Below are positions 16,283 to 61,461 of a stretch of DNA of 64,000 nucleotides, piece by piece; position 1 is the first letter of the stretch, and each line of letters starts with the position of its first letter. Both the position numbers and the translations under genes were made by a program. The stretch is from a virus, in IMG/VR virus record IMGVR_UViG_3300046819_000377, positions 3,802 to 67,801 of that record; one strand, given 5' to 3'. The notes beneath the pieces were generated by a model. That model ran no database searches, was not told where the DNA came from, and worked only from the letters and a program-made list of their open reading frames with translations.

Positions 16283-16314
16283 ACACATTTTACACAACAA
16301 CATAAGAGAACTTT

Positions 16315-26141: not shown

Positions 26142-26377
26142 AATTAAGAACTATCAATACCAGTTCATTCGTTATCTTTTGTGATTGTCCATATGGCTTG
26201 GAATTTATTTTAGCTGACATTATGACAATATCAGTAATGCGGGTCTGGTGTAAGAAAAATTTCCGTACCTATAATTATTATTGGGAATGGTCCCCTGCTG
26301 GAACTGTGAGAACATTTTGCTTTAATTCAGAAGAAAACCGATCCTGGTTTATACTTAAATTTTCGGAGTATCTATGA
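26138..26377 (+). CDS. W-family variant (ends RSWFILKFSEYL*)
   Basis: ATGA overlap. Confidence 0.55.
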   Translation: MKLRTINTSSFVIFCDCPYGLEFILADIMTISVMRVWCKKNFRTYNYYWEWSPAGTVRTFCFNSEENRSWFILKFSEYL

Positions 26378-26601
26378 ATGCGGCTATTGATAATATATTG
26401 GATCATGCACATTGTAAATTCCCTGTAAAAATAAAAGACGATTACGGTATAATTTCAGAAATGACCCAATGGTGCAGAGACCATATTGGTACATATTACT
26501 TTACGTGGGATTGGGTAGTATATCGTGGTGTAAAAATGTTTTATTTTGAAAAAGAACATCACCGAACCTGGTTTATCATTAGATTTTCGGAGTACTTATG
26601 A
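26374..26601 (+). CDS. W-family variant (ends RTWFIIRFSEYL*)
   Basis: ATGA overlap. Confidence 0.55.
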   Translation: MNAAIDNILDHAHCKFPVKIKDDYGIISEMTQWCRDHIGTYYFTWDWVVYRGVKMFYFEKEHHRTWFIIRFSEYL

Positions 26602-26798
26602 GCGATGGTTATAACGATCCATTCCCATGGAAAGTACAGTTTAAGCCAAGCCGATATTTTCCAAAATATTATAATGAAATGGCAGATTTTTGTAATAAAA
26701 TGACAGATCATTGGGGAAGTGTAGAGTATACGTTTATGTTTGCATACGAAGAACATATGAACTGGTTTATACTTAAATTTTCGGAGTACTTGGAATGA
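26598..26798 (+). CDS. W-family variant (ends MNWFILKFSEYLE*)
   Basis: ATGA overlap. Confidence 0.55.
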   Translation: MSDGYNDPFPWKVQFKPSRYFPKYYNEMADFCNKMTDHWGSVEYTFMFAYEEHMNWFILKFSEYLE

Positions 26799-27043
26799 GT
26801 TTTTACATAGCAACCATACCATTTAAAGAATGGATAACTGATCCTATGCAACGCCCAATCGTTTACGTAAGTATGATTGAATGGTGCAAGGAAAATATAG
26901 AACCAAGACATCAACCAGAATCACCACACTACTGGTTCCCTAGAGCATTTCGTGGTAGAACTGGTGTGTATAAATTTCATTTCAGAGATGAACAAGACTA
27001 CAATAACTTTGTTCAACATTTTAAGTTGGAAGATGTCATATGA
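26795..27043 (+). CDS. hypothetical protein (82 aa)
   Basis: ATGA overlap. Confidence 0.5.
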   Translation: MSFYIATIPFKEWITDPMQRPIVYVSMIEWCKENIEPRHQPESPHYWFPRAFRGRTGVYKFHFRDEQDYNNFVQHFKLEDVI

Positions 27044-29339: not shown

Positions 29340-30803
29340 ATGATAGAACATCTAAAACAACAAAATTTTATCTTACAAGCCGATGCGTACAAAGCTACAC
29401 ATTGGAAGCAATTAAAAAGATCAACTAACAAATCTTACTCGGTTATCGTCCCACGCAAAGTTAGCAAATATTCGGATATCATAGTTGCAATGGGGCAATC
29501 AATGGTTGCTTCATATTTTGCATCTGTCCGTATCACCGATGAAATGATCGATGAAGCTGAATTGGAAATTACCGAACAAGGCTATGATTTCTACCGAGCT
29601 GGATGGGAATATATTGCACACGAATTAGACGGTAAATTACCATTAGCAATTTTTGGTGTTGAAGAAGGTCGTATCGTACAACCACAAACGCCTATTTTAG
29701 GCATTATTAATACCGATGACCGTTCAGCTTGGTTACCTGCATACTCGGAAACTATTGCACAAGATATTATCTGGACAATGAGTTCAGTAGCAAGTTTATC
29801 GTTAGCAATTAGAAAAACATTTGCACATTATATCGAAGAAACTGGTGCTCACATGAATCAGTTGAACACCCGTTGTCATTTCTTTGGTGATCGTGGTGGT
29901 AGTTCTCCTGAATCTGCAGTACTTACTGCCATAGCACATGCCGTAATTTTTGATGGCAGTGATTGTTTACAAGCCAATCGTTATATCAAACGTTTGTATA
30001 ACACTTCAAAAGCATATACTTCAAGTATTGTTGCCACCGAACACAGTACAATGTGTGATAATTCTGACGCAACTACCAAAGATGATTACGGTGCAGCAGT
30101 AATGGCAGTCGAATTACTGGAACAAGCAGTTGAACGCACTAAAACCCGTGGAATTGGTATTCCAATGATTAGTGCAGTTATTGACACATACGATAGTCGT
30201 AGATTTGTCAGAGATTATGTTGGTGGTCCTGAATTAAAAGAACGTGTTATCAATAGTGGTGGTACATTTGTGTTTCGTCCTGATTCTGGTGATATTACAG
30301 TAGAGCCAGGTATGGTCGGTAATGACATTGAATATGCATTTGGTGTAGAAGTCAATGAAAAAGGATACAAAGTTATCCCTTGCTATACCGCAGTATTACA
30401 AGGCGATGGTATTAAATGGAATACTTACGAAAGTGTAATTAAAGGATGGGTTGATGCTGGTTTCAGTATTGATAACTTTGCTATTGGTATGGGCGCTGGA
30501 TTATCAAATGGTACTTCAAGAGACGATTTCAGTTTCAGTATGAAAAGTATTGCAACATTTGATGGGCTGCGTTGGACTCGTAAATTAAAAGAACCAAAAA
30601 CCGATCTTGGTAAAAAATCATTATCAGGATTAGTTAGATGTCGTGAAGATGCCAATGGTAACTTGGAAGTATACGATGCTATACACGAAGGCAACGAGTA
30701 CGGTTTTATGTATCCAGGTTCTGGTTGGAAGTTATGGTTTGAAAACGGCCATAGAAAATATCGTCAATCTTTTGATGAAGTCCGTGAATGGGCTTCAAAG
30801 TAA
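29340..30803 (+). CDS. nadV: nicotinamide phosphoribosyltransferase (NAMPT / NadV)
   Basis: N-terminal ILQADAYKATHW. Full-length (487 aa) with the NAMPT signature. Confidence 0.85.
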   Translation: MIEHLKQQNFILQADAYKATHWKQLKRSTNKSYSVIVPRKVSKYSDIIVAMGQSMVASYFASVRITDEMIDEAELEITEQGYDFYRAGWEYIAHELDGKLPLAIFGVEEGRIVQPQTPILGIINTDDRSAWLPAYSETIAQDIIWTMSSVASLSLAIRKTFAHYIEETGAHMNQLNTRCHFFGDRGGSSPESAVLTAIAHAVIFDGSDCLQANRYIKRLYNTSKAYTSSIVATEHSTMCDNSDATTKDDYGAAVMAVELLEQAVERTKTRGIGIPMISAVIDTYDSRRFVRDYVGGPELKERVINSGGTFVFRPDSGDITVEPGMVGNDIEYAFGVEVNEKGYKVIPCYTAVLQGDGIKWNTYESVIKGWVDAGFSIDNFAIGMGAGLSNGTSRDDFSFSMKSIATFDGLRWTRKLKEPKTDLGKKSLSGLVRCREDANGNLEVYDAIHEGNEYGFMYPGSGWKLWFENGHRKYRQSFDEVREWASK

Positions 30804-34974: not shown

Positions 34975-35196
34975 TCAACTCCATCTGATGATGGCTAATG
35001 TTATTTTTACTGGATCACCTTGGTAAATTTCAAGATAAGTTTCGTCTGTTTCTGGACTTAATTTTGCATAGGTAACAATCATCCAGTTTGCACCGTCATT
35101 GTGATAACCGAATTTTTTAGTCATCCATTGATAGACTTCAACATAATTACGTTTGGATATTTTAATTTTAGTCATGACCACTTGATTACAAACCAA
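34975..35196 (-). CDS. W-family small protein (ends KITLAIIRWS*)
   Basis: C-terminal motif. Confidence 0.55.
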   Translation of the reverse strand: MVCNQVVMTKIKISKRNYVEVYQWMTKKFGYHNDGANWMIVTYAKLSPETDETYLEIYQGDPVKITLAIIRWS

Positions 35197-35405
35197 TTCC
35201 TGTGCTCTTCTTTTCTGAAGGCGAAAATATCACAATCATCAATCTCTGCATACGAATTGTACCACATTAGTTCACCAAACGTTGTATCACACCATTCAAA
35301 CATATCTTGGAACACCTCGTCTTCACCATATCTATCATAAAGCTTTATTCTATCATCATGAAAGAGTAAAGCCTGATAAACATATTCTTCTGTATGAACT
35401 TGCAT
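35172..35405 (-). CDS. W-family small protein (ends EEHRNWFVIKWS*)
   Basis: C-terminal motif. Confidence 0.6.
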   Translation of the reverse strand: MQVHTEEYVYQALLFHDDRIKLYDRYGEDEVFQDMFEWCDTTFGELMWYNSYAEIDDCDIFAFRKEEHRNWFVIKWS

Positions 35406-35752
35406 TATTTTTTAGATTCAGCTAATCGATATGTAAATTCAGTACCAGGAAATCGTTCGCTTGCATATTTTAAAACTTCTTCAATTGTATTACCCTGAGA
35501 AACAAACATATCCGATTCAGCTGCCCATCCAATAAATTTTGCACCATGCTGCTCAATTAAGATTTCAATTGCATTTGCGGTGGGTTTTGCACTGATTGGG
35601 TTTTCATCATCATCTATACTGATCGATTTATCTAAAGCATCAATAACATCTTGTTTATTCATTGAATAAGCTGTCACAGTTAACCAGAAAAAGATATATC
35701 CACCAATAAGTAACCCAATTACGAATGCAATAATAACTGCAAGTATCATCAT
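35405..35752 (-). CDS. membrane-anchored protein (about 115 aa), paralogue of 34313..34633
   Basis: Start at MMILAVIIAF (ATGA overlap with upstream stop). C-terminus TIEEVLKYASERFPGTEFTY. Confidence 0.5.
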   Translation of the reverse strand: MMILAVIIAFVIGLLIGGYIFFWLTVTAYSMNKQDVIDALDKSISIDDDENPISAKPTANAIEILIEQHGAKFIGWAAESDMFVSQGNTIEEVLKYASERFPGTEFTYRLAESKK

Positions 35753-36219
35753 TTTTGTTTCTCCAATGTAAGTTTTGATAAAAGTTGAAAGTTGTCGTAG
35801 CTGATTTTCACAGCTGGGTTCTCTAACAGTTGAGCAGTTTGTTGTTCTAGATCTTTCATGATGGTCTCTGCTGCTTGGGCTGCACTCGGGTAAGATATCA
35901 TTGAAATATCTTCTTTTTTCATGGTTGCGACAAAAGCATCCCATGCAGCTTGTTGCTCAGTGTTTAATGTTATAGATGGTCTAGCAATAGTGCCTTCTAC
36001 AATAGCGGTGGCTAATTTATCGATAGCATATCTGCCAGCTGCAATCATTGGTGCAAAAGCTGGGTCAACATTGTATTTTGTACTAGTAGAACCAGGCTTG
36101 CAAACAACCAAATGTGCTCCAGCTGGGTATGAACTCAGTAGTTTATCATCATACTCGCTGACTGGCTTGTATCTTCTGCCTTGTTTGGTATAAAAGGTGA
36201 TTGACATTCTTAACTCCAA
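35749..36219 (-). CDS. hypothetical protein (about 152-156 aa)
   Basis: ORF track. Alternative start at 36207. Confidence 0.5.
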   Translation of the reverse strand: MELRMSITFYTKQGRRYKPVSEYDDKLLSSYPAGAHLVVCKPGSTSTKYNVDPAFAPMIAAGRYAIDKLATAIVEGTIARPSITLNTEQQAAWDAFVATMKKEDISMISYPSAAQAAETIMKDLEQQTAQLLENPAVKISYDNFQLLSKLTLEKQK

Positions 36220-36262
36220 AATGATAAAAATTCATTATATCAAATTGAATTAAGAATGTCAA

Positions 36263-36463
36263 TTATGACAATTTGAGTCGGTAGAAAGTTGCATGTTCAG
36301 GGCGTTTAAAATAAAAACATGCTCTTTGTGGATAGGATTTTATTTCAAAATCAAAATCAATGCCTTGAATTAACCCGATATCACGTAATTCCCTGATAAA
36401 GATCATGATTTCTTTTGCGAATGTAAAATGTATGGTTACAATGTTATCGCGTATTTTTTTCAT
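36263..36463 (-). CDS. small protein, W-family-like (ends EHATFYRLKLS*)
   Basis: ORF track. Confidence 0.45.
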   Translation of the reverse strand: MKKIRDNIVTIHFTFAKEIMIFIRELRDIGLIQGIDFDFEIKSYPQRACFYFKRPEHATFYRLKLS

Positions 36464-36695
36464 TTTTCACATACTCCACTAGTTCGTTAAACTTGTTCGC
36501 GTGATCTTGTTCTATAAACCAATAGATATGAAATTGAGGATTATTCTGTATTGCATATTCCCTGAATACTCTACACCCAATATGTCTTAAAATAGTAGCT
36601 AATTTAACCACCCACTTTAAATCATCTTCGGTTCGTTCAACACAAATGCAATGGACATGATCTGGGTATTTGGTTTTGAATTCATCTTCGGTCAT
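36444..36695 (-). CDS. hypothetical protein (83 aa)
   Basis: SD AGGAGG 4 nt before ATG 36695. Confidence 0.55.
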   Translation of the reverse strand: MTEDEFKTKYPDHVHCICVERTEDDLKWVVKLATILRHIGCRVFREYAIQNNPQFHIYWFIEQDHANKFNELVEYVKNEKNTR

Positions 36696-36698
36696 GAT

Positions 36699-36732
36699 AT
36701 TCCTCCTATCATTATTTATTGGTAGGAGGAAT
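36699..36732 (-). promoter_or_regulatory. hairpin sequestering the RBS of 36444..36695
   Basis: Minus-strand 5'-ATTCCTCCTA-(14 nt)-TAGGAGGAAT-atc-ATG. Perfect 10-bp stem. The AGGAGG SD is in the 3' arm. Confidence 0.4.
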
Positions 36733-36739
36733 TCAATCG

Positions 36740-37009
36740 TTATACTCGTTCTTCAATTGGGATTACTTCATAACTTTCGACTTTTCGGATTGGTACTAAT
36801 CCCAGACCTTGATGTAATGGTAATTTTAATGGTCTACCGTTAATATCCCATTCTAAAGGCATATTATAACAGTCAAAGCACACATACCCAACAATCTTGT
36901 CATCGGTGCATTTTTCATAATCGATAAGAACTGGATAACCAGCTGCTGATTTGAAGCCAAAAGCTTGCATTAGAAAACCGTGATGTAAATGTTTTTGAAT
37001 AAATGTCAT
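36740..37009 (-). CDS. hypothetical protein (89 aa)
   Basis: ATGA overlap with upstream stop. Confidence 0.5.
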   Translation of the reverse strand: MTFIQKHLHHGFLMQAFGFKSAAGYPVLIDYEKCTDDKIVGYVCFDCYNMPLEWDINGRPLKLPLHQGLGLVPIRKVESYEVIPIEERV

Positions 37010-37359
37010 GGTGTGTCCTTGATTGGTGTTTTATTACCGTCTTTATCAATTGCTACAAATGTGATTTCTGTTGTGAATACTAATTCATTATTTCTGTTTA
37101 AACAGAATACATCAATGTTGAAAGTCGCTGATGTCGTGCCTTTTTTTATCAACTTTGTGTCAAATTCAAGGATAGAACCCGCTGGCATACTTTTATGAAA
37201 TACAACCTGGTTCAATCCAACTGTGACAAATTCGTGTCCTGGAAATTCAACATTGACTGCAACATATCCAACGGTATCGATCCACTTTAACATCTCGCCG
37301 CCAAAAAGAAACCCGTAATGGTTTAAATGGCTTTGTAAAACTAATTTGTGTTGTTTCAT
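37006..37359 (-). CDS. acyl-CoA thioesterase, hotdog fold (YciA-like)
   Basis: HLNHYGFLFGGEMLKWIDTVGYVA..VTVGLNQVVFHKSMPAGSILEF..KGTTS. Confidence 0.65.
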   Translation of the reverse strand: MKQHKLVLQSHLNHYGFLFGGEMLKWIDTVGYVAVNVEFPGHEFVTVGLNQVVFHKSMPAGSILEFDTKLIKKGTTSATFNIDVFCLNRNNELVFTTEITFVAIDKDGNKTPIKDTP

Positions 37360-37562
37360 TGGTCTCCCCATGTAAGTTGAAGTACGGTATATAATTCTTC
37401 ATTGATAGTATATGAAACCCCGTGATTAGAATGTTCAATATGATACCATAGTCTTTGTGGTTGTTTTACTATCCAGTGTATTAATTTATGATCCTGGACA
37501 TCTATACGATACCAATAATCATTCATTAAGCTGTTATAATGCTTATCTACTACTGTGAACAT
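37356..37562 (-). CDS. W-family-like small protein (ends VLQLTWGDQ*)
   Basis: ATGA overlap with thioesterase start. Confidence 0.45.
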   Translation of the reverse strand: MFTVVDKHYNSLMNDYWYRIDVQDHKLIHWIVKQPQRLWYHIEHSNHGVSYTINEELYTVLQLTWGDQ

Positions 37563-37572
37563 ATAATCCCCA

Positions 37573-37842
37573 TTACTTTCCCCATTTCAATAAAAACCAA
37601 GTTTTGTCAGTTTCCGATAATTCTGCCATTACTTGGTATCTGTTGCAATCAAATGCATAATCGGCGACTCCTAAAACCCTAATTGATTTACTTCGTCGTT
37701 TCACCCATCGCCCAATTTCTGATTCATAGAATTTGTCGAGTATTTCGTTATATGGGTCATAATCTGGACCGTTCATAGTGGCTGGGTACATGTATGAAAG
37801 ATTGGATATTATAAACTCATGTACACACATTATTTCATTCAT
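37573..37842 (-). CDS. W-family small protein (ends DKTWFLLKWGK*)
   Basis: C-terminal motif. Confidence 0.6.
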   Translation of the reverse strand: MNEIMCVHEFIISNLSYMYPATMNGPDYDPYNEILDKFYESEIGRWVKRRSKSIRVLGVADYAFDCNRYQVMAELSETDKTWFLLKWGK

Positions 37843-38033
37843 TTATCCCCCCACATTAATACATACCATGAAAAATCTGCTTCATTTTTGAAATAGATAT
37901 AATTATTTTTAATGAACCATCTAGTACCAAGATTTCCAAAGTTCTTGGCGCACCAATCATACTTTTCACCGGGTGAATTGCGAATTCGTAATCCATGGTA
38001 CTCTATAAGTTGCTGTGTTTCAATTTTCATCAT
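37839..38033 (-). CDS. W-family small protein (ends DFSWYVLMWGDK*)
   Basis: C-terminal motif. Confidence 0.55.
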   Translation of the reverse strand: MMKIETQQLIEYHGLRIRNSPGEKYDWCAKNFGNLGTRWFIKNNYIYFKNEADFSWYVLMWGDK

Positions 38034-38304
38034 ATCCAGACCATTTTATATTAACCCAATTATACATTGCCCGAGCTGATTCTTCCGATTCTACCTTCCA
38101 TGACATTGGACCCAATGAATTAACTAACGAATTACATATAAAAAACTCTTTAATATCTGCTATTTCTTTTTCAGATAACCAAACCTTTGCAGTTGGTGTT
38201 AATGAAACCGCCCAATACTCTTTATTTTTAACACAACAATGCAAAAGTGTAAAATTCTTTGATTTTTGTAAAAGGGTATAATGGGTATGCATTATGCTTC
38301 CCAT
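38020..38304 (-). CDS. W-family-like small protein (ends YNWVNIKWSGYDEN*)
   Basis: C-terminal motif. Confidence 0.5.
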   Translation of the reverse strand: MGSIMHTHYTLLQKSKNFTLLHCCVKNKEYWAVSLTPTAKVWLSEKEIADIKEFFICNSLVNSLGPMSWKVESEESARAMYNWVNIKWSGYDEN

Positions 38305-38531
38305 TTCAACACAAACATTGTGTATAGTTCTTCTTTAATAGCATAATCAACAATAGTCATGCATTCGGTCCTCTTCCATAATGACACATTACAAGTTTTA
38401 ACCCATCTACGTATTTCTGCTGAATATATGCGTAAATAGTACCACTTGTTATTATTCTTATCGGTTTCAATCTCATACATATTGAATTTCTTATTACTAG
38501 CAACAATTGGTCTGATTATTTTATTGGTCAT
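38292..38531 (-). CDS. W-family small protein (ends LYTMFVLKWEA*)
   Basis: C-terminal motif. Confidence 0.55.
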   Translation of the reverse strand: MTNKIIRPIVASNKKFNMYEIETDKNNNKWYYLRIYSAEIRRWVKTCNVSLWKRTECMTIVDYAIKEELYTMFVLKWEA

Positions 38532-38733
38532 GGTATCCCCATTTCAATACAAACCATGTATAATTTTCATCCGTAAATTCGATTTCGTAAAACCCATCAA
38601 TTTCAATGACAGTACATCTGTAAGTAGTTTCAAACTGATCAATGAACTTACCATCGGATAATCCTTTGTGTTCTATGAAATATCGATTCAAAATAGGCCA
38701 TATAGTATGATTATTCAATTTAAGTCTAACCAT
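38521..38733 (-). CDS. W-family small protein (ends NYTWFVLKWGYHDQ*)
   Basis: C-terminal motif. Confidence 0.6.
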   Translation of the reverse strand: MVRLKLNNHTIWPILNRYFIEHKGLSDGKFIDQFETTYRCTVIEIDGFYEIEFTDENYTWFVLKWGYHDQ

Positions 38734-38989
38734 GAGATCCCCATTTTAAAATAAACCAGGTGTAATCCTCATCTTTGAACGTCAATGTCCATTCACCAAA
38801 TGAAATTTCCTCAGTAGTGCATCTAAATGTTTTGTGAAACAATTCCATATATTCGTGAGTGAGGAGATCAGCATTGGCGTAATAAAATTCTTGAATTGAA
38901 TGTCTTGCTTTATCTGGCAGTTCATATATCGCTTTAGTAATCATATTATCACACGTGTAACATAAACCAAGTAAACCGTTCTTTAACAT
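38726..38989 (-). CDS. W-family small protein (ends DYTWFILKWGSHG*)
   Basis: ATG 38989 (the ORF-track start was TTG). Confidence 0.6.
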   Translation of the reverse strand: MLKNGLLGLCYTCDNMITKAIYELPDKARHSIQEFYYANADLLTHEYMELFHKTFRCTTEEISFGEWTLTFKDEDYTWFILKWGSHG

Positions 38990-39092
38990 AGGCAATCATT
39001 GTCAATGACGGCTTTTCATGATCCCGTAATGCTTTTAATCTCTCATATTGCGGAATAGTTAATTTAATTGTTTTTGCCATTTAAAAATCTCA

Positions 39093-39287
39093 TTAGGCCG
39101 ACCATCGTATCGCAAATATTGTAAACAAATCTTCTCTAATATCAAATGATGATATTCCTGCAGTATCAACCCATTTTTCTGTAGACTGATTGCGTATCCA
39201 CCGCCATATATCTGAATCAAGGGTATGAATGGCGTACCAAACATACCCGTCATCACATAGACATGAACATAGAATTGTGTATTTCAT
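39093..39287 (-). CDS. W-family small protein (ends LFTIFAIRWSA*)
   Basis: ATGA overlap at 39287. Confidence 0.55.
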   Translation of the reverse strand: MKYTILCSCLCDDGYVWYAIHTLDSDIWRWIRNQSTEKWVDTAGISSFDIREDLFTIFAIRWSA

Positions 39288-39514
39288 CAAGCTTTTTTAG
39301 GAATTTTGTCACTCCATCTCAAAATAAAAAAATCACGCTGTCCCTCATTTTTAAAACTAAACAATCTATCAGTCATGTATAAACCACACCGAGATTGTTC
39401 AACCCATACCTTCATTTCTGATAATAAATCATCATCAATTTCATCTCGATCAAATGAAATACCAGGTAATTTAAACATACCTGTCTCGACAATACGCATA
39501 GATGTTCTCCGCAA
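39287..39514 (-). CDS. W-family small protein (ends RDFFILRWSDKIPKKA*)
   Basis: C-terminal motif. Confidence 0.55.
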   Translation of the reverse strand: MRRTSMRIVETGMFKLPGISFDRDEIDDDLLSEMKVWVEQSRCGLYMTDRLFSFKNEGQRDFFILRWSDKIPKKA

Positions 39515-39645
39515 TTTAAAATTAAAAAAATATTATATAATATTAAGATATGAATGTCAACATATTTTAATAAATACATGACAATAAAAAAGCCAATCGT
39601 GATATTACAAGTATCCATCGGCAGTAACGTCTGGAGGGACATCAC

Positions 39646-40617
39646 ATGAATATTTATATTCCGTACACTTATATTATCAAATTTTTACCAACTGGTCAAG
39701 TCTATTATGGCGTTAGTTATGCTAATAGCAATAAAGTAGCCAATCCATCACAGTTATGGACTAGTTATTTTACCTCTTCCAAGATTATTCATGGATTAAT
39801 AAAGGAACATGGCATTGATGCATTCAAGTTTGAAGTTAGAAAAACCTTCGATAGCAAAGAAAAGGCTGTGTTATGGGAACATAAGATCCTTATAAAATTT
39901 GATGCCAAGAACAATCCAATATGGCTTAATCAAAACAATGGTAATAAAAAGTTCAAATCAATTCCGCACACCACTGAAACAAAATTAAAAATTTCACTCG
40001 CACATAAAGGTAAAAAACTGTCTCCTATCACAGTTGAAAAAATAAAAAATGCAAACACTGGTAAGAAACGAACACCAGAACAAAATGCTAATACATCTGC
40101 CAGACAATTGGGGACCAAAAGAGGGCCATTATCGGATGACTGTAAGAAAAAATTATCGAGTATTCTGAAAGACAGAAAATTGACATCTGACCATAAACAA
40201 AAAATATCAATCGCACTTACTGGAAAAACTGGCACATTCACTGGTAGGAATCATACACCTGAAACAAAAGCAAAAATTTCAGCAGCACATTTAGGAAAAA
40301 AGAAGAAACGCGATCCTAATAAAAATCCACCGAAAGGCGAATCTCATCCATTATACGGCAGAACAGTACCAGCGGAAATTAGACAAAAAATTGCTATGGC
40401 GCACAAAGGTAAACCAAAGACTGAAAAACAAATTCAATCAGTAATTGATCATTCTGCTAAAACTTATAGTTTAACTACACCAGCTGGTGATACTATTATA
40501 ATAACTAATATGGCCAAATTTTGTAGAGATAATGATCTATTACGAGAAAGTATGATGAAAGTAATTCATGGTCGTATGAAATCATGTAATGGATGGACAG
40601 GGAAACTCGTTGAATAA
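39646..40617 (+). CDS. GIY-YIG homing endonuclease with NUMOD3-like repeats (free-standing, antisense to neighbours)
   Basis: IYIPYTYIIKF..GQVYYGVS (GIY-YIG). Repeated H(T/K)xE(T/Q)KxKIS..GK(K/P) modules. SD GGAGGG. Confidence 0.75.
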   Translation: MNIYIPYTYIIKFLPTGQVYYGVSYANSNKVANPSQLWTSYFTSSKIIHGLIKEHGIDAFKFEVRKTFDSKEKAVLWEHKILIKFDAKNNPIWLNQNNGNKKFKSIPHTTETKLKISLAHKGKKLSPITVEKIKNANTGKKRTPEQNANTSARQLGTKRGPLSDDCKKKLSSILKDRKLTSDHKQKISIALTGKTGTFTGRNHTPETKAKISAAHLGKKKKRDPNKNPPKGESHPLYGRTVPAEIRQKIAMAHKGKPKTEKQIQSVIDHSAKTYSLTTPAGDTIIITNMAKFCRDNDLLRESMMKVIHGRMKSCNGWTGKLVE

Positions 40618-40764
40618 TTATATTCCTAATTCAAAGATTGTGTTGTAAAGGTTGAATAATTCTTCATCTGATAAATTATACACATCAGTAACCCGCATGT
40701 CAAATATTTCTTCCAAGGATTCATCCCAGTGGTTAGCAATCCGTTCTAGTATTAAATCTCTCAT
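40618..40764 (-). CDS. small acidic protein (48 aa)
   Basis: ATGA overlap with upstream stop at 40761-40764. MRDLILERIANHWDESLEEIFDM... Not in the ORF track. Confidence 0.3.
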   Translation of the reverse strand: MRDLILERIANHWDESLEEIFDMRVTDVYNLSDEELFNLYNTIFELGI

Positions 40765-41093
40765 TTTAAAAACTCGCTGTATTTAATCAAGAAAAACGTG
40801 CGTTTAGCTTCATCGTAAAAATCTAATTTGATCATCTTTTTTGCCTCTTTTCTTTGAGGTTCATACAGAAATAATGAACTGAATGAAGACTGTTCAGCTT
40901 CCAGGTAACTCTTATATTCCGCAGCATATTTAGGATTATCTACCCATTCGGTATGTTCACGCGGAGTAAATCCCAGTACACGTTTTGTTTTTTCTCTGAT
41001 TGCTAGCACACTTGGAGGATAATCATTGTGTAATTCTAACAACAACTTTTTCCATTGTTCTTTTGTAATTGATATAGGTTTCATGCCATCCAC
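40761..41093 (-). CDS. W-family variant (ends KRTFFLIKYSEFLK*)
   Basis: C-terminal motif. Confidence 0.5.
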   Translation of the reverse strand: MDGMKPISITKEQWKKLLLELHNDYPPSVLAIREKTKRVLGFTPREHTEWVDNPKYAAEYKSYLEAEQSSFSSLFLYEPQRKEAKKMIKLDFYDEAKRTFFLIKYSEFLK

Positions 41094-41347
41094 CTTAATT
41101 TAAACCATGTCATTTGCGCTCTTTTAACTATTCTAGCATCAAATTGCACATATATATCTTCTTTAATCACATACCCAGTATCATCGTCAAATACAGATTC
41201 TAAATATAATTTCCAATTATATCCTGCACGATACCATGTATTGGACAATTGCAATACTTCTGGACCTACATTTTTAATTAGCCACTCCACAAGTTGATTA
41301 GCCTCGTATGAGTGGACATCATCTAAATTTGTTATTTTTCTACGCAC
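41081..41347 (-). CDS. W-family small protein (ends QMTWFKLRWMA*)
   Basis: C-terminal motif. Confidence 0.55.
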   Translation of the reverse strand: MRRKITNLDDVHSYEANQLVEWLIKNVGPEVLQLSNTWYRAGYNWKLYLESVFDDDTGYVIKEDIYVQFDARIVKRAQMTWFKLRWMA

Positions 41348-41618
41348 TGGTTTTTAAAATGTACATTGTAACATATGGCCCATCAACTATCACTAAATCT
41401 TCAGGGTACTTATTGTGAGAGCCAGTATACCATGTACTAGTTTTCACATTCAACAATTGTACCTTAACCATTTTGGGATTCAATTTGGTGACTCTTGCTA
41501 TCTTCATATTATTGTGTAAACTGACTGCTACAACATCACCAATCTTTAACAAACGTCCCAAAATGTCTCGGTGTTCAATTAGTGGTTTAGGTGTTCTCGT
41601 TTTCTTCTCTGTTGTCAT
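41340..41618 (-). CDS. hypothetical protein (92 aa, ends ..VTMYILKTSA*)
   Basis: ORF track. Confidence 0.5.
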   Translation of the reverse strand: MTTEKKTRTPKPLIEHRDILGRLLKIGDVVAVSLHNNMKIARVTKLNPKMVKVQLLNVKTSTWYTGSHNKYPEDLVIVDGPYVTMYILKTSA

Positions 41619-41907
41619 ATACTTCCCATGTATTATTTAAATAATCCCAATGTCTACTATCATAGACTGATATTGCAAATTGATATCCTAAAATACCAAT
41701 CTCTAACTTTGGACCTGCGTGATCTTCACCTAACCAACTAATGACCAGGTTAAGTTCAAACAAGTTCCAATCATAATGCATCAGTTGTAATTCCCAATGC
41801 TTGTGTGGATTAAATGATCCGCTTTTGAACCATAAATTCTCAAAATTACTATTTTTGAAAAAAGGATTTTTTATTTGTAAATTAAATTTGATCATGAATG
41901 ACTCCAA
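41587..41907 (-). CDS. hypothetical protein (106 aa)
   Basis: ORF track. Confidence 0.5.
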   Translation of the reverse strand: MESFMIKFNLQIKNPFFKNSNFENLWFKSGSFNPHKHWELQLMHYDWNLFELNLVISWLGEDHAGPKLEIGILGYQFAISVYDSRHWDYLNNTWEVYDNREENENT

Positions 41908-42176
41908 CGTAAATTAAACCAATTTGCCATTTCTGGTCTTTCAAACCAGAATTCATGTCGCAAAAATTTAATTTCAAAAGTGCTAGGATCGATCACCGGT
42001 TTGCTTTGATTAGCATAAAAAAATGAATCACTATTTTGCTCACGACACCATGTAATCATGTCATCGTATACTCCAACAGAAACTGATCTATTGATGGTAA
42101 TTTTGGTCCAAGAATCATGTTGTTTGATATCTACTGAACGTCTCATAAAACCATTCCTATATATCCAATATAACAC
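41892..42176 (-). CDS. W-family small protein (ends EMANWFNLRWSHS*)
   Basis: C-terminal motif. Confidence 0.55.
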   Translation of the reverse strand: MLYWIYRNGFMRRSVDIKQHDSWTKITINRSVSVGVYDDMITWCREQNSDSFFYANQSKPVIDPSTFEIKFLRHEFWFERPEMANWFNLRWSHS

Positions 42177-42487
42177 AATTGATGCGCCATCTGATCAAGT
42201 CCAAGATCTCGCCAAAATTTAGGATTCTGGATATCTTGATTACCAAAGTTTCGTTTAGTCCAATCAATATGATAATGAAGAATAAAATCCAACAAACCAA
42301 TAGATGCAGCAAGATATGGGTTGATCAATAGAATAATCAGACCAGTGGCAAAGCCATGTTTTAAACTATGCATTATACCAGGTAACTCACCATAATGTCC
42401 TTTGCTAATAACTTCAATATCCGTTTGATTAACAAAATCAATGTACCAATGTTTAAATTGTAACAGTACTAAAATTATAAATCCCAT
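42143..42487 (-). CDS. membrane protein (114 aa, 3-4 TM)
   Basis: Hydrophobic segments. His-rich loop LHYHIDW. Confidence 0.5.
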   Translation of the reverse strand: MGFIILVLLQFKHWYIDFVNQTDIEVISKGHYGELPGIMHSLKHGFATGLIILLINPYLAASIGLLDFILHYHIDWTKRNFGNQDIQNPKFWRDLGLDQMAHQLCYIGYIGMVL

Positions 42488-42490
42488 TTA

Positions 42491-42823
42491 TCACCCATTA
42501 TTTTTTTCAAGCACTTCTTCAGCTTTGCATAGTTGCTTAATCATATCATATTGACCTTTGGCACTAGCTAATGCTGGATATTTTTCGATTAAAATTTGTT
42601 CTTCTTTTTCTTCAATCATTTTTTTACATGCCCAATCTAACGCCTGTTCAGCGTTTGACGTTAACCCAACTATCCCATTCTCAGATGCTATTGGTGTCCA
42701 ACTATAACCAGTATATGCTTCTAAATGACCATCTTGTATTCGTAATGAACCGGATGTTATTGAAGAACTGCCATTTGAATGACACAATATATGTGAGCTA
42801 TTACTTTGTATTCCATGTATCAT
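42491..42823 (-). CDS. hypothetical protein (110 aa)
   Basis: ORF track. Confidence 0.5.
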   Translation of the reverse strand: MIHGIQSNSSHILCHSNGSSSITSGSLRIQDGHLEAYTGYSWTPIASENGIVGLTSNAEQALDWACKKMIEEKEEQILIEKYPALASAKGQYDMIKQLCKAEEVLEKNNG

Positions 42824-43001
42824 GTTTTTTAAGATTCCATTTTAATAATAAAAAAGTTAAATCTGACTCATTAGTTAAGTCAAGATATGTTAATTCTCGT
42901 AAATCCCATCGATCATTAAATCCAGGTGGACCCCAATGAGTACACATCCAAGTGAAAATTTCCATTGGTCGATCAAACTGATTTAAATCTACTGTTTTCA
43001 T
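42801..43001 (-). CDS. W-family-like small protein (..LTFLLLKWNLKK..)
   Basis: Motif near C-terminus. Confidence 0.45.
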   Translation of the reverse strand: MKTVDLNQFDRPMEIFTWMCTHWGPPGFNDRWDLRELTYLDLTNESDLTFLLLKWNLKKHDTWNTK

Positions 43002-43297
43002 ATTCCATATTTTATTTTGAACAAAAAATATTTGTGTTCGTTTACTATTACTGCCGCATCTACATCAACTTGACCTTCACGCATTGGTATGTCCAACCCA
43101 TAGGTGTCTTTAATATGTGATAGTAACGAAGTGATACTCCAGTTACTGTTACTATTTGCATAATCATCCCGTATTTCTCGTAATACCACAATCATTCGAT
43201 TTCTAAAGGTTCGCTGTTTTTCTAACTCTTTTGCATACTGTTTAGTGTCATCAGCTAATTCTTTAAGTGTTTTTTCTGCTATTTTATTCATGACCAT
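42998..43297 (-). CDS. W-family-like small protein (ends HKYFLFKIKYGI*)
   Basis: ORF track. Confidence 0.45.
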   Translation of the reverse strand: MVMNKIAEKTLKELADDTKQYAKELEKQRTFRNRMIVVLREIRDDYANSNSNWSITSLLSHIKDTYGLDIPMREGQVDVDAAVIVNEHKYFLFKIKYGI

Positions 43298-43560
43298 CTC
43301 AGTAAAAACCAGGTATAATTTGCATCGTCCTCAAATTCTGCATATTTTGGCTCATCGTATGACGGCTTAATCTTACATTTATTTTCTTGTTCAAAATGCT
43401 TATAAACTAGTTCCATTTGTTTAGAGAATACCTGATCAAGATTGCCAGTAAATTCAACCATCGGCGAATGTGCAACCGAATATTTACTGGCTTTACGAAC
43501 AGCGACATCCCTAGTAAGCGATAATTTTTTCATCAAGCACCCCATCTTATAATAAACCAA
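43288..43560 (-). CDS. W-family small protein (ends DANYTWFLLRWS*)
   Basis: C-terminal motif. Confidence 0.6.
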   Translation of the reverse strand: MVYYKMGCLMKKLSLTRDVAVRKASKYSVAHSPMVEFTGNLDQVFSKQMELVYKHFEQENKCKIKPSYDEPKYAEFEDDANYTWFLLRWS

Positions 43561-43889
43561 TTTCTGTCAGCTGCATTTCGGAAAATAAATCGATCATCAG
43601 GTACTAATTTCCACCGATCACCTAGAATTTCTCCGAATACTTCTTCACACCATTTAACGCAGTCTTGAACATGGATCTTACTACTTGGACTAACCCAATA
43701 TACATAATCTTGGTAATCAGTATAATCATCGCCTTGACGCAATGGTCTTGTATCATATCGCGTTCTCAATGAAAATATCTGACCAGCTTGGCTTGTCATT
43801 GGTTGAACCCCCACGATATTTTGTGCAATCAATTCTGGTTGTACTCTGCGTATCATTGACAAAATTGATTGTTTTGATAACTCTTTCAT
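43533..43889 (-). CDS. W-family small protein (ends ADRNWFIIRWGA*)
   Basis: C-terminal motif. Confidence 0.6.
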   Translation of the reverse strand: MKELSKQSILSMIRRVQPELIAQNIVGVQPMTSQAGQIFSLRTRYDTRPLRQGDDYTDYQDYVYWVSPSSKIHVQDCVKWCEEVFGEILGDRWKLVPDDRFIFRNAADRNWFIIRWGA

Positions 43890-43913
43890 AATCCACTCCT
43901 TGGATTTTAATAA

Positions 43914-44120
43914 TTATTCTGATATCCATCTTAATGTGAACAAAGTGCAATCCATCTCTCTATACAATGTGAGAATGCCACCTTGCATATTAAACTTCAT
44001 TTTTCGTTCAGTGAGCCACTCTGCTACTTCATTCCATTCTCTCGTGTCTAATCCTTTATTGCCATTATCTTTGCTCAATATAAAACTATTGTGCTCAAAC
44101 GGCATTTTTTTAATTCTCAT
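43914..44120 (-). CDS. W-family small protein (ends MDCTLFTLRWISE*)
   Basis: C-terminal motif. Confidence 0.5.
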   Translation of the reverse strand: MRIKKMPFEHNSFILSKDNGNKGLDTREWNEVAEWLTERKMKFNMQGGILTLYREMDCTLFTLRWISE

Positions 44121-44121
44121 G

Positions 44122-44367
44122 TTAACTCCATTTTAATAAAAACCAATTCCTATCAATCTCATTTGCGAACCATATATATGAAAATGTATATGACCATCTC
44201 TCATTTTGGGTCTCACACCAACCATCACCACCAAATTGTTGTGATGCCCATTCAATTATTTCAGGATATTCGTCATAAAAACCATCCCCTAAATAAACTG
44301 CATATGGATGCACGTTTGCTGAAAAAAATTCAGTACTTATCTTATATTGTTTTTTCATCAGCCCCAC
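44122..44367 (-). CDS. W-family small protein (ends EIDRNWFLLKWS*)
   Basis: C-terminal motif. Confidence 0.6.
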   Translation of the reverse strand: MGLMKKQYKISTEFFSANVHPYAVYLGDGFYDEYPEIIEWASQQFGGDGWCETQNERWSYTFSYIWFANEIDRNWFLLKWS

Positions 44368-44669
44368 CGTAATGCAAACCAGTTCTTATCTTCTTCACTT
44401 TTTATAAGTATTCTAGCAGGAGTTCCCTCATATGGACTAGTCCAACACCATCTTTCATTGACTATTGGCTTGTTATGAATCATTAACTCCATGAATTCAT
44501 TTAATGAGCAACTAGGACCAAATGTTTCCCAACACCATTGACGCATTTCACAGAATTTTGCTGTTCGATCACCTTGTTGCCAAGAAGGTTGCCATCTGAA
44601 AACCATGCTGTATTTGAAGTATTGATGACCGGTGTATCGCTTGTCTAACTTTGATATCGCTATATTCAT
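44358..44669 (-). CDS. W-family small protein (ends EEDKNWFALRWG*)
   Basis: C-terminal motif. First gene of the minus-strand block. Confidence 0.6.
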   Translation of the reverse strand: MNIAISKLDKRYTGHQYFKYSMVFRWQPSWQQGDRTAKFCEMRQWCWETFGPSCSLNEFMELMIHNKPIVNERWCWTSPYEGTPARILIKSEEDKNWFALRWG

Positions 44670-44727
44670 GTATGAATTATACTCCTTCTTATGGTGGATG
44701 TCAATAAATAATTACAGAGGCATACAA

Positions 44728-45540
44728 ATGAGAATACTAGTCACCGGTGCCAACGGATTTGTTGGACGTAATATGCTCGAATGGCTATCCCAAGAAGAAT
44801 TCTGGGAAATCGAGACATGGGAATGGGATCCTAATAATTTACCTGATGTAAAAAAATATAAATGGGTCATACATCTGGGTGCTGTTACAGATACCAGTGA
44901 TGCTGACGTTGATACGATTATACATAAGAACTATGAGTTCAGTCAATGGCTTTTTACTGAATGCAATAAGAATAAAGTGCATATGCAATATGCCAGTTCC
45001 AGCGCTGTTTATGGAAATAATAAGAATTTTTCGGAATTTGCTCCTTGTCATCCAGAAACACCATATGCGTGGTCGAAATACTTATTTGATAGATGGGTAT
45101 TGCAGCAAGAGCATAACATCTATGTTCAAGGATTTCGATACTTCAACGTGTATGGAAAATATATGCATACCAAAGGAGAACGAGCTGATATCTTATGTAA
45201 GTGGCGAGAAGAGGCCAAAAATGAAGGAAAGATCACTATTTGGGCAAATGCTGATCGCATCAAACGTGATTGGGTTTGGGTCGGAGACGTATGCAAATTA
45301 CATATTGATTTCATTAAAACTATCAATGGTTCAGGCATCTGGAATGTTGGCTCTGGACTATCACACAGTTATTTAGATTTAGCGGAAGAAATTGCAATTC
45401 AAGAAGGGGTACAAATTGAATTTGCCTCACCAAAACCAACTGAACAATATAATACAAAAGCCGACTTAACCTTATTGAAATCAACTATCGGAAAACGCAA
45501 ATGGTTATCAGTTTACGAATGGATTGATCGTGGATTGTGA
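44728..45540 (+). CDS. NAD(P)-dependent epimerase/dehydratase (SDR family)
   Basis: MRILVTGANGFVGRN Rossmann motif. YAWSK active-site YxxxK. Confidence 0.7.
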   Translation: MRILVTGANGFVGRNMLEWLSQEEFWEIETWEWDPNNLPDVKKYKWVIHLGAVTDTSDADVDTIIHKNYEFSQWLFTECNKNKVHMQYASSSAVYGNNKNFSEFAPCHPETPYAWSKYLFDRWVLQQEHNIYVQGFRYFNVYGKYMHTKGERADILCKWREEAKNEGKITIWANADRIKRDWVWVGDVCKLHIDFIKTINGSGIWNVGSGLSHSYLDLAEEIAIQEGVQIEFASPKPTEQYNTKADLTLLKSTIGKRKWLSVYEWIDRGL

Positions 45541-47925: not shown

Positions 47926-48741
47926 ATGAAATATATTTTATTATTACTCGCTGCAGGTTTTACACTTTCAGCAGAAGCCTGGGACCAAGTTGCCCCATAT
48001 CCAATTGAAAAATGCCAAGTACAATCACCGTATGGCTTTCCACAAACTTCTAAACAAGGTGTAGCAATATGTCGTGCTGGTTATGTTACATTAAACGATA
48101 CTACTGCAAAATTACCAGTTTGGGTTTCTTATACATTATATCCTGAATATGCGTTAGGATGTGTTCCACGTTCTAATGGCTTTGCCCCCGATCAAAGCTT
48201 ACCAAAAGGTAGTAGGGCAGAGCTAATCGATTTTAAAGGCAGCGGCTATGATATTGGTCACGTAGTACCCAATGCAGATCAATCAAGGTTCGATCAAACA
48301 GAAAAAGAAAGTTTCTTATTAACTAATATGGTGGCTCAATTACCAGGAACTAATAGAGGAATAATTAAATTGACCGAAACTAATATTCGTGGATGGGTAA
48401 CACAGAGAAATCATCCATATGTAATTTATTCTGGTCCATTATATGGACCAGGTGATAAAACTATTGGTTTAAACCAAATAGTCGTTCCTCATGCATTTTA
48501 TAAAATAGTAATTGACACAACAACTAATGAAGTTGCTGGATTTCTAATACCACATGTCGGAAATCAAGGAAATGACTTGACAAAAGTTAGAGCACCAATT
48601 GATCAAATCCAACAATTATCAGGAGTCCAATTTGCATACCCAGCGAATGCGGTTGAATTACCATTAAATTATTTATGGCCTGTTGATTATAAAGCATTAA
48701 CCGAAGCGAAAAGAGCTGCATGCAAAGGCAACGCTAACTAA
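47926..48741 (+). CDS. secreted DNA/RNA non-specific endonuclease (Endonuclease I / NucA-like)
   Basis: Signal peptide MKYILLLLAAGFTLSAEA. GYDIGHVVPNADQS (DRGH-type motif). LPGTNRG..RGW. Confidence 0.6.
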   Translation: MKYILLLLAAGFTLSAEAWDQVAPYPIEKCQVQSPYGFPQTSKQGVAICRAGYVTLNDTTAKLPVWVSYTLYPEYALGCVPRSNGFAPDQSLPKGSRAELIDFKGSGYDIGHVVPNADQSRFDQTEKESFLLTNMVAQLPGTNRGIIKLTETNIRGWVTQRNHPYVIYSGPLYGPGDKTIGLNQIVVPHAFYKIVIDTTTNEVAGFLIPHVGNQGNDLTKVRAPIDQIQQLSGVQFAYPANAVELPLNYLWPVDYKALTEAKRAACKGNAN

Positions 48742-49709
48742 CCAGGTTTATATTTACAATTATCAAAATGCCAGCGTTTTGCGTTCGATGCATTGCTGGC
48801 ATTACCACAATACGGACAAATCAATATTTCCTGTGGTGTTAGTTTTTTGCCCTTTCTTGACAAACTCATTTTCAATTTAGATTCTTCGGTATGTGTTCTA
48901 CCGGCCATGGCCCCTACTTTTCCATACATTGGGTTATTTTCACCAGTGTTAGCTTCACTCAGTTTTTCCTTGAGCTCTTTTGCTCGTTCTACCCCGTATA
49001 TTTCATCGAAGGTCTTTCCTTTACGCAATGCAATCGTTTCCGGAGAATGTTTCTTACCCGTAAAAGTACCAGGTTTTCCATATCTATGATTTTTATCACC
49101 TAACATTTTTATACGTTTTTTCTCAGATATTTCTTTAGCCTTTTCTTCACCGAATATTTCATTATAACTTCTCCCTAACCTAGATGTTTTGTGAATAATC
49201 TTCATCGGTTTTAATGATTCTTTATAAATCCATGTCTTTTTTAATTTATTGATTTTTTCTAATGCTTTTTCTTCCCCATATAATTCAATATATGTTTTTC
49301 CCTTATTATTTGATAGTTGACCTTTATTTCGTATACTAATCATTTGTTTTTGCTTATCGGTCCATAATCTTCCTAATGTACCATCCCCACCGAGGGTCAT
49401 ATTGTATCCAGAATGGTAACTATCATATAAATTGATAAAATATGTCTCCATTGCATTTTTTAAATAATCCCCTTCTAACGATTGATATATTATTTCAAAG
49501 GTAAATTTATCGATGCCATACTTTTTAATAGCATAGTATAAATGCGAATTTAGTTTTCTTGAGTTTCTAGTATGTTCTACGATCCTTCTTTCAAAGTTAT
49601 TTGTAAAACCTATATAAATTTTCTCATTAATTGTATTTGTAATTTTATAAATGGAATAAATATCCATGTTGATACTCCTTTTCAGTATTAAAGTAGATGG
49701 GAACGCCAA
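48738..49709 (-). CDS. GIY-YIG homing endonuclease with NUMOD3 repeats and C-terminal Zn finger
   Basis: YSIYKITNTINEKIYIGFTNNFERRIVEH. NPMYGK. CPYCGNASNASNAKRWHFDNCK. Confidence 0.75.
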   Translation of the reverse strand: MAFPSTLILKRSINMDIYSIYKITNTINEKIYIGFTNNFERRIVEHTRNSRKLNSHLYYAIKKYGIDKFTFEIIYQSLEGDYLKNAMETYFINLYDSYHSGYNMTLGGDGTLGRLWTDKQKQMISIRNKGQLSNNKGKTYIELYGEEKALEKINKLKKTWIYKESLKPMKIIHKTSRLGRSYNEIFGEEKAKEISEKKRIKMLGDKNHRYGKPGTFTGKKHSPETIALRKGKTFDEIYGVERAKELKEKLSEANTGENNPMYGKVGAMAGRTHTEESKLKMSLSRKGKKLTPQEILICPYCGNASNASNAKRWHFDNCKYKPG

Positions 49710-61441: not shown

Positions 61442-61461
61442 TTTACATTTTTGGAAGTTAA

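Follow-up and report, generated by a model that had tools for sequence, protein, structure and literature searches.

The DNA analysed here is 64,000 nucleotides from an uncultured virus (positions 3,802 to 67,801 of the IMG/VR record IMGVR_UViG_3300046819_000377). We call this whole stretch the window and number it from its first letter; its guanine-plus-cytosine (GC) content is 34%. It carries arrays of small genes whose products share a C-terminal module, most densely on the minus strand between 34975 and 44669. A preliminary description had reported such a family at these positions, and this is borne out: a strict pattern for the protein ends (W[FY]x[ILVMF][KR][WY], at most 25 residues from the stop) matches 18 open reading frames (ORFs) in six-frame translation, against a mean of 0.08 and a maximum of one in 50 triplet shuffles. 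A hidden Markov model (HMM) iterated on the window's own ORFs converged at 33 members, and a broader model that included metagenomic relatives found 35 complete members at E<1e-3, giving 36 firm members with the one cut by the window start (1-195). About eight further array ORFs have the fitting strand and size and a visibly degenerate tail, and are not significant alone (left coordinates 34975, 37356, 38020, 38292, 38949, 39093, 42998 and 43914; HMM E 0.02 to >10). Copy number in the window is thus 36-44, and the "at least 45" of the preliminary description can be reached only by eye. The 43 mapped genes cover 10.0 kb, or 15.7% of the window where roughly a quarter had been estimated; the interval 34975-44669 holds 22 members (15 firm) that fill 56% of it. 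Proteins are 61-118 amino acids (aa) long, with a median of 74, and their isoelectric points (pI) span 4.4-9.5. One member (26795-27043) lies beyond the ranges listed previously. Members, candidates and accompanying promoters are given below; L040 is a related locus from a distant phage.

1-195, plus strand: family member cut by the window start, tail DDAEFTWFTIQWT (translation)
201-446, plus: member, tail YYTWFLLNI plus extension (HMM E 8.8e-6)
858-1094, plus: member, start at 795 or 858 (HMM E 4.9e-11)
1091-1276, plus: member (HMM E 1.3e-6)
4126-4154, plus: perfect TTGACA-N17-TATAAT promoter heading the 4197-5535 array (pattern search)
4197-4418, plus: member, LLQQ subfamily (HMM E 3.8e-10)
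4415-4651, plus: member, LLQQ subfamily (HMM E 1.1e-15)
4648-4866, plus: member, LLQQ subfamily (HMM E 1.7e-11)
4863-5120, plus: member (HMM E 1.7e-17)
5117-5338, plus: member (HMM E 3.9e-13)
5335-5535, plus: member, LLQQ subfamily (HMM E 1.5e-9)
7221-7445, plus: member (HMM E 1.4e-11)
7442-7627, plus: member (HMM E 8.4e-8)
20217-20429, plus: isolated member, LLQQ subfamily (HMM E 1.2e-10)
25287-25499, plus: member modelled with AlphaFold2 (HMM E 1.8e-13)
25496-25696, plus: member, recent tandem duplicate of 25693-25896 with 80.6% aa identity (HMM; clustering)
25693-25896, plus: member, duplicate of 25496-25696 (HMM; clustering)
25893-26141, plus: member (HMM E 3.7e-5)
26138-26377, plus: member, FSEYL tail variant (HMM E 4.3e-12)
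26374-26601, plus: member, FSEYL variant (HMM E 3.6e-12)
26598-26798, plus: member, FSEYL variant (HMM E 8.6e-10)
26795-27043, plus: divergent member (HMM E 3.5e-7)
34975-35175, minus strand: degenerate candidate, tail ITLAIIRWS (E 0.63; position, size, tail)
35172-35405, minus: member (HMM E 3.4e-15)
36234-36262, minus: perfect sigma70-type promoter (pattern search)
36263-36463, minus: member (HMM E 3.6e-5)
37356-37562, minus: degenerate candidate, tail LYTVLQLTWGDQ (by eye; HMM not significant)
37573-37842, minus: member (HMM E 2e-7)
37839-38030, minus: member (HMM E 1.1e-10)
38020-38292, minus: degenerate candidate (E 0.16)
38292-38531, minus: degenerate candidate, tail LYTMFVLKWEA (E 0.024)
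38521-38733, minus: member (HMM E 8.9e-8)
38726-38989, minus: member (HMM E 1.5e-8)
38949-39080, minus: short 43-aa ORF, tail ERFTWFMLHV, possible remnant (E 0.89)
39093-39287, minus: degenerate candidate, tail LFTIFAIRWSA (E 1.9)
39287-39499, minus: member (HMM E 1.2e-7)
39532-39560, minus: perfect sigma70-type promoter heading the sub-array 39499-36263 (pattern search)
40675-40703, minus: perfect sigma70-type promoter (pattern search)
40761-41084, minus: member with long N-terminus (HMM E 1.3e-4)
41081-41347, minus: member (HMM E 5.4e-5)
41892-42146, minus: member (HMM E 2.9e-9)
42801-43001, minus: member (HMM E 6.2e-4)
42998-43291, minus: degenerate candidate, tail KYFLFKIKYGI (E 12; position only)
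43288-43533, minus: member (HMM E 1.2e-9)
43533-43889, minus: member with a gp23-derived N-terminus, aa 8-53 (Pfam Gp23; BLASTP; L040 orthologue)
43914-44120, minus: divergent member, tail CTLFTLRWISE (E 0.023; syntenic orthologue at L040 5785-5991, E 1e-4)
44122-44358, minus: member (HMM E 2.5e-13)
44358-44669, minus: member, first gene of the minus-strand operon (HMM E 4.5e-9; L040 orthologue)
44676-44704, minus: perfect sigma70-type promoter heading the minus-strand array, divergent from the epimerase gene 44632-45540 (pattern search)

Most of these genes are joined to the next. The stop codon is overlapped by the ATG of the following ORF in 33 of the 43 mapped genes, and in six others the next ORF begins within 15 nt; an exact ATGA, at first thought to chain nearly all of them, accounts for 24. 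The thioesterase (4HBT family, 37006-37371) and the homing endonuclease (SegE-like GIY-YIG/NUMOD3, 39646-40617, on the opposite, plus strand) that were described as the only interruptions of the minus-strand array are both confirmed, yet about eight other non-family ORFs also intervene (35405-36219, 36444-37009, 41340-41907 and 42143-42823).

Mobile genes differ among the related loci at this array. The endonuclease of 39646-40617 also occurs in L045, while L042, L043 and L044 lack it at this position, and a second ORF of 323 aa (48738-49709, minus) corresponds to a GIY-YIG/NUMOD3 gene in L042-L045. A gene for an IS605-family OrfB/TnpB (Cas12f-like) is inserted in the array in L042 (16355-17536) and L043 (13778-14959), between the orthologues of 36444-36695 and 36263-36463; the insertion is absent from the window and from L045.

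In each family protein, a variable N-terminal part precedes a module of ~45 residues with the signature W-C-x3-F-G, ~20 variable residues, and then F-x-F-x2-E-x4-W-F-x-L-[RK]-W-[SG]. Conservation is therefore not limited to the ~14 C-terminal residues noticed initially; the strongest of the 42 positions of the family profile is the upstream Trp of W-C-x3-F-G (0.98). AlphaFold2, run with the family alignment on the member at 25287-25499, predicts a beta-alpha-beta-beta-alpha arrangement (strand 11-15, helix 25-46, hairpin 48-50/53-56, helix 59-69) with a mean predicted local distance difference test (pLDDT) score of 80, rising to 88-92 in the module. An equal module was predicted at residues 62-116 of a 118-residue fusion member (pLDDT 78-89). 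In these models the motif first recognized corresponds to strand 3, a helix N-cap (S/N-E-E) and the terminal helix, so that the C-terminal strand proposed earlier is present as a short F-x-F strand, with a terminal helix in addition. The predicted fold, a two-layer alpha/beta sandwich, is generic, and no structural neighbour was informative.

The conserved positions are all aromatic or aliphatic, except for the cap and one basic residue, and this is the pattern expected of a folding core. Alternatively, the conserved aromatic C-terminal helix could be exposed and dock all paralogues on one hub (for instance RNA polymerase, the ribosome or EF-Tu, a protease, the membrane or a fellow family member), with the variable part bringing cargo or blocking sites; the Ank-PRANC/F-box families of poxviruses work by docking on a common partner in this way. 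Five of the six residues of W-F-[ILV]-L-[RK]-W are hydrophobic and the helix lacks a clearly polar face, the motif lies 0-13 residues from the C-terminus in all members, the metagenomic representative P0052 carries two modules in tandem, and a single hub would make the large copy number easier to explain. However, in the AlphaFold2 models of two different members the helix forms part of the packed domain (pLDDT ~90), and conservation spans the helix 1 Trp, the strand 3 F-x-F and helix 2, not one surface. A specific interface would be marked by conserved polar residues, and none were seen. Moreover, genes of the LLQQ subfamily end in CAA CAA TGA and entirely lack [RK]-W-[SG], as well as any Shine-Dalgarno-like sequence, so the extreme end is dispensable for the fold. 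We therefore regard docking on a common hub as rather unlikely.

The motif is maintained by selection on the protein. Across 19 orthologue pairs between the window and related contigs, the pooled ratio of nonsynonymous to synonymous substitution rates (dN/dS) is 0.27, with 0.19 in the last 20 codons and 0.31 in the rest, while dS is equal in tail and body (0.129 vs 0.123). A second set of 48 pairs gives dN/dS of 0.15 in the tail vs 0.40 in the body, with dS of 0.37 and 0.27, respectively. Because dN/dS is low in the tail, dS is not reduced there and the motif codons vary synonymously, the conservation is that of a protein sequence. No positive selection was detected, with paralogues within a locus reaching dN/dS of 0.73 in the variable part (four pairs only).

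The last three codons show a further constraint. Arginine in the tail is encoded by AGG in 95 of 129 cases (74%) vs 67 of 547 (12%) in the remainder of these genes (Fisher p = 1e-42), and serine by TCA in 86 of 137 (63%) vs 217 of 748 (29%). The resulting AGG TGG TCA TGA includes GAGGTGG a few bases ahead of the stop-overlapping ATG, and these codons are dual-coded, also supplying the Shine-Dalgarno sequence and overlapping start of the next cassette. This codon bias, and the indel breakpoints that fall in tail DNA (see below), are what one would expect if the repeat were nothing but a junction, ribosome-binding site or recombination site and the ORFs had no function as proteins. A purely nucleotide-level constraint, which the preliminary description named as one finding that would overturn it, accounts in part for the last three codons and fails for the motif as a whole, whose tail dN/dS is 0.15-0.19. 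The motif is also kept at the amino-acid level across contigs of GC 31-43% and in 525 protein cluster representatives, and the upstream W-C-x3-F-G has no role at the junction. An explanation by nucleotides only is hardly credible.

Comparison of related loci, which were found with degenerate DNA patterns, reveals whole-cassette turnover. Exactly one cassette, of 237 bp, separates loci L002 and L003; at either end their alignment breaks within the ~35-nt tail repeat GAAGCNCATTAYCACTGGTTTTTATTACAACAATGA, with the reading frames left intact. L003 joins blocks that are found at 26 kb, 17 kb and 3 kb of the window, and the early region is a mosaic among contigs that are 80-98% identical in their shared blocks. 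The near-identical ~35-nt tail DNA is thus a site of unequal homologous recombination, which adds or removes whole cassettes in frame and with coupling intact.

The 42 complete members of the window fall into 38 clusters at ≥35% identity, with a lone recent duplicate pair, and cassettes have been gained or lost between close contigs, in agreement with the diverse cassette family originally proposed. In L040 (GC 31%), the operon beside the epimerase gene keeps the gene order of the window: a perfect promoter, then the orthologues of 44358 and 43914 and of the fusion gene at 43533-43889. Given the 38 clusters, the single recent duplicate and these syntenic orthologues, the family is old and diversified, with individually retained lineages and local bursts, and is not a simple amplification of dosage. 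A "gene accordion", in which equivalent copies amplify one activity such as a sponge or decoy and their divergence is neutral drift, would fit the tandem duplicate at 25496-25896 (80.6% identity), the bursts of similar sub-types in locus L018, and the variation of copy number between related contigs. It does not fit paralogues that are mostly <35% identical and each under purifying selection, the retention of particular paralogues in a distant phage, or a pI range of 4.4-9.5, and we judge it quite improbable.

Perfect TTGACA-N16-18-TATAAT promoters are strongly enriched in the window, with 15 found vs 0.18 expected, all on the coding strand:

Plus strand: 2749, 4126, 5756, 10530, 14507, 18870, 21843, 22335, 23029 and 29261
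Minus strand: 36262, 39560, 40703, 44704 and 49781

Those at 44704, 40703, 39560 and 36262 split the minus-strand array into sub-operons, and promoters and arrays are laid out in the same way in the related loci L040, L042 and L045. Terminator-like stem-loops are not enriched between 34.5 and 45 kb (4 vs 4.6 expected), and none lies at a cassette border. The T4 late-promoter motif TATAAATA is depleted in the window as a whole (3 vs 13 expected), with no family gene behind any of its three sites. We infer that the family genes are early genes transcribed by the host polymerase, and the idea of early effectors agrees with the perfect sigma70 promoters that head the arrays.

Several smaller observations concern these promoters. 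The first gene of the minus-strand operon (44669) begins 6 nt past the -10 hexamer, so its transcript may be leaderless; an AAGGAG within the spacer of the 44676-44704 promoter could serve transcripts from an upstream 11/12 promoter at 44946. The depletion of TATAAATA extends to the DNA ahead of the virion genes at 51-60 kb. Promoters 5756, 21843 and 22335 (partly also 14507) share a near-identical leader and gene start; three MORN-like-looking paralogues with repeats like "WYLNGKLHREDGPAIE" (5818-6324, 21905-~22345 and 22397-22912, plus strand) are each preceded by this same promoter and leader.

A conserved terminal peptide attached to a hypervariable remainder in a plastic locus also recalls the internal protein locus of T4, and one member bears a fragment of a capsid protein. 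The conserved end might accordingly be a packaging signal, and the family a variable anti-restriction set injected with the DNA. We consider such virion delivery very improbable: the conserved element is C-terminal and predicted to fold into the domain, sigma70-type promoters precede the arrays, late motifs number three in the window with none ahead of a family gene, and no motif resembling a protease site was seen.

The member with the capsid fragment (43533-43889) matches Pfam Gp23 (PF07068) with an E-value of 5.6e-13 over profile positions 5-48 of 376 only, and its residues 8-53 are 48% identical to residues 94-139 of T4 gp23 (BLASTP E 2e-13). The segment carries a conserved "IAxxIxGVQPM" stretch. 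Residues 8-54, and no others, match capsid genes of 2,114 cultured phages. We rejected the possibility that this gene encodes a capsid protein, as no match in the 2,114 records covers ≥80% of the query; it is a fragment. Fusions of this gp23 segment to the module recur in the metagenomic representatives P0036, P0108, P0125 and P0022, a syntenic orthologue (32% identical protein) lies at L040 6001-6477, and the exact protein is present in many samples.

The corresponding part of gp23 is of particular interest. According to a review (PMC3014915), gp23 has in its first quarter a 29-residue Gol region, which binds domains II-III of EF-Tu, lets the Lit protease cleave EF-Tu in abortive infection, and is the most conserved part of the protein. 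That status was only partly reproduced in our three-way alignment (T4, cyanophage and Acinetobacter phage), where residues 94-135 are not first but fall within the top ~10% of 30-residue windows. Gol presumably occupies gp23 residues ~93-122, and the segment in 43533-43889 is homologous to the region that holds it. Like the Gol peptide of T4, the segment aligns with the Gol-bearing part of gp23; it differs in being detached from the capsid protein, predicted by AlphaFold2 to be disordered, fused to a folded family module, and placed in a putative early operon. We speculate that a detached Gol-like peptide from an early operon may act as a ligand of EF-Tu or divert capsid-sensing immunity as a decoy.

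The family is without a name, as initially supposed, and appears specific to phages. Among 54 members, no match of the module was found in Pfam or PHROGs, and profile matches to PDB sequences were limited to an oligoribonuclease (E 0.06), which we discarded as spurious. Cultured phages searched by tblastn gave no match to P0049 (type A), to an LLQQ member or to the variable parts of 41 members joined end to end. A consensus-tail query yielded a lone marginal cultured relative, XYS97803.1 of the Sinorhizobium jumbo phage Phosso (tblastn E 0.05; HMM 9e-5), a 94-aa protein (L037 5866-6150; ...EWCEETFGEP...DFVFKRKFDAAIFKMRWASQ) present as a single copy outside any array, which suggests that the module exists beyond the expanded lineage. 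A degenerate DNA pattern run against 185,579 species genomes, a narrow test, turned up no copy in a bacterium or prophage; two pattern matches in high-GC metagenome-assembled genomes were dismissed, being about the chance number, one with a weak HMM score and no other family features and the other with none. In the literature we found no described phage multigene family of this kind.

Metagenomes, by comparison, hold many relatives. A profile search of 1.84 billion protein cluster representatives gave 525 matches at E<=1e-3; the 150 listed are all 52-158 aa long, with the module at or a few residues short of the C-terminus in nearly all, and no annotation was found among the matching representatives. 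IMG/VR loci with GC 32-43% carry from 1 to 39 copies per locus. The highest number is in L018 (bases 1-11,615 of the 94-kb metagenomic contig IMGVR_UViG_3300044613_002694), where 39 members form a nearly unbroken run; the contiguous L024 and L031 add 22, and 77 distinct members were found in 37.6 kb of this contig. The contig spans the window sequence, with shared blocks 96-98% identical and the window starting at its position ~32,918, and its left flank adds at least 64 members to the 36-44 of the window. A genome of this type thus probably encodes >100 members, a number that comes from the near-identical strain and is not counted on the window's own molecule.

The source is part of an uncultured T4-like myovirus. 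This follows from a virion protein with 51% identity to one of cyanophage S-RIM32, from a gene content that includes NAMPT, an NMNAT-NUDIX fusion, BCS1-like AAA ATPases, an epimerase and an aminotransferase, and from the lack of any near DNA match to the window, or to 34975-44669, among 50,697 cultured phage records. No tRNA genes were found in the window. The putative early region holds the NAD-salvage genes (the NMNAT-NUDIX fusion and NAMPT) and two adjacent AAA ATPases, the first BCS1-like, all among 23109-24122, 29340-30803 and 14937-17382. A second small paralogous family has at least five members on the plus strand (8958-9206, 10125-10358, 10908-11090, 11077-11391 and 11391-11621), with the pattern MNE.I.EL..QA ... 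FAELIIKEC ... and the C-terminus HFG(I/V)E. At ~61460-64000 (plus strand), GC rises to 48% vs 34%; this region codes for a protein of at least 846 aa that continues past the window end and contains long collagen-like G-x-y repeats (GATGPAGIDGIIGVDG...), probably a fibre or structural protein.

On balance, we think it probable, though not strongly so, that these genes form a phage-specific, unnamed multigene family of small early proteins, built as self-contained translational cassettes and serving as a repertoire of host-interaction binders. Host RNA polymerase would read the arrays right after infection as long polycistronic mRNAs. The tail AGG TGG TCA TGA carries the Shine-Dalgarno sequence and overlapping start of the following cassette, and unequal recombination at the ~35-nt tail repeat adds or removes cassettes in frame. 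The conserved aromatic and hydrophobic positions would be mainly the folding core of a small, evolvable scaffold, on which a variable N-terminus and loops may give each paralogue a binding specificity of its own; because of such paralogue-specific binding on a common scaffold, the family could be a repertoire of binders for host takeover or anti-defence. The conserved member showing the disordered gp23 Gol-region peptide would be the clearest case of peptide or surface display. The genetic architecture is well supported, while the protein function is inferred.

Several points weigh against this repertoire of binders. No member resembles a protein of known activity, and >100 distinct host targets seems many for one phage. 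"Early" stands for a match to promoter consensus only, and the orthologue pairs behind the dN/dS values are not independent. The N-terminal third of the 25287-25499 model has low confidence (pLDDT 61-69), and the terminal helix, hydrophobic on nearly every face, may be partly exposed, as would fit a surface for docking or self-association.

A bolder version of the same proposal would make this the largest multigene family so far in a bacteriophage, with >100 divergent paralogues of the ~45-residue module spread over ~25 kb as a fast-evolving, plug-and-play early repertoire of host-interaction or anti-defence binders, including an ancient Gol-mimic lineage, fixed in synteny, that could act as an EF-Tu ligand or as a decoy against capsid-sensing abortive infection before the capsid protein is made. 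We put this forward tentatively, as possible and somewhat doubtful.

In T4-like phages, the early genes of plastic regions are mostly ORFans with no kinship to one another, which makes them difficult to study together. A phage lineage that devotes a large share of its early region to one evolvable scaffold offers a natural library, with hundreds of variants, conserved orthologues, and visible gain and loss. The dual-coded tail joins protein core, ribosome-binding site, start codon and recombination site in one element, making cassettes interchangeable without an integrase. The gp23 Gol-region member offers a testable hypothesis on countering capsid-sensing immunity or manipulating EF-Tu, and if the proteins are target-specific binders, the family could supply small binding scaffolds.

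To our knowledge, from a non-exhaustive survey, no bacteriophage has a family of such size. Close parallels are the multigene families of large eukaryotic DNA viruses, namely MGF110/360/505 of African swine fever virus and the ankyrin-PRANC and Bcl-2-like families and "gene accordions" of poxviruses, whose divergent paralogues vary in copy number by homologous recombination. They share with the window family tens of divergent paralogues of one small scaffold, isolate-variable copy number and a presumed arms-race diversification. They differ in infecting eukaryotes, in the absence of translational coupling and in host targets that are partly known; if our reading of host-interaction binders is correct, the window family is their phage counterpart. 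The host-takeover module of Bacillus phage SPO1 comprises about two dozen small early genes with very strong host-type promoters and strong ribosome-binding sites. It is likewise a block of small early-type genes behind host-type promoters, but the SPO1 genes are not mutual paralogues. The internal proteins of T4 come from a polymorphic locus and have an N-terminal capsid-targeting sequence that is unstructured and cleaved by the prohead protease. Both systems pair a short conserved terminal segment with a hypervariable remainder; in the window family, however, N-termini are not conserved, the conserved part is C-terminal and predicted to be folded, and the promoters are of early type.

The nearest relative in mechanism is found among T4-type phages, whose hyperplastic regions contain PeSL cassettes, small genes of unknown function behind strong sigma70-like promoters that are inserted, deleted or replaced as whole genes (Arbiol et al. 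2010, PMC2839356; PMC4122927). The PeSL repeat is a non-coding promoter plus a stem-loop terminator that flanks unrelated ORFans (PMC2839356; PMC4122927). Strong sigma70-like promoters, a plastic region and the shuffling of whole genes by short-repeat recombination are common to both systems. In the window, by contrast, the repeat is the coding 3' end of one translationally coupled protein family, and cassettes abut by ATGA overlaps with no promoter-paired stem-loop terminator flanking them. The L002/L003 indel, the single one resolved, is likewise bounded by the coding tail repeat instead of a promoter and stem-loop, although the principle is alike. Mechanistically, the family is thus a variation on the T4-like theme of hyperplastic early cassettes, and what is new is that the recombining repeat is the coding 3' end of a single family.

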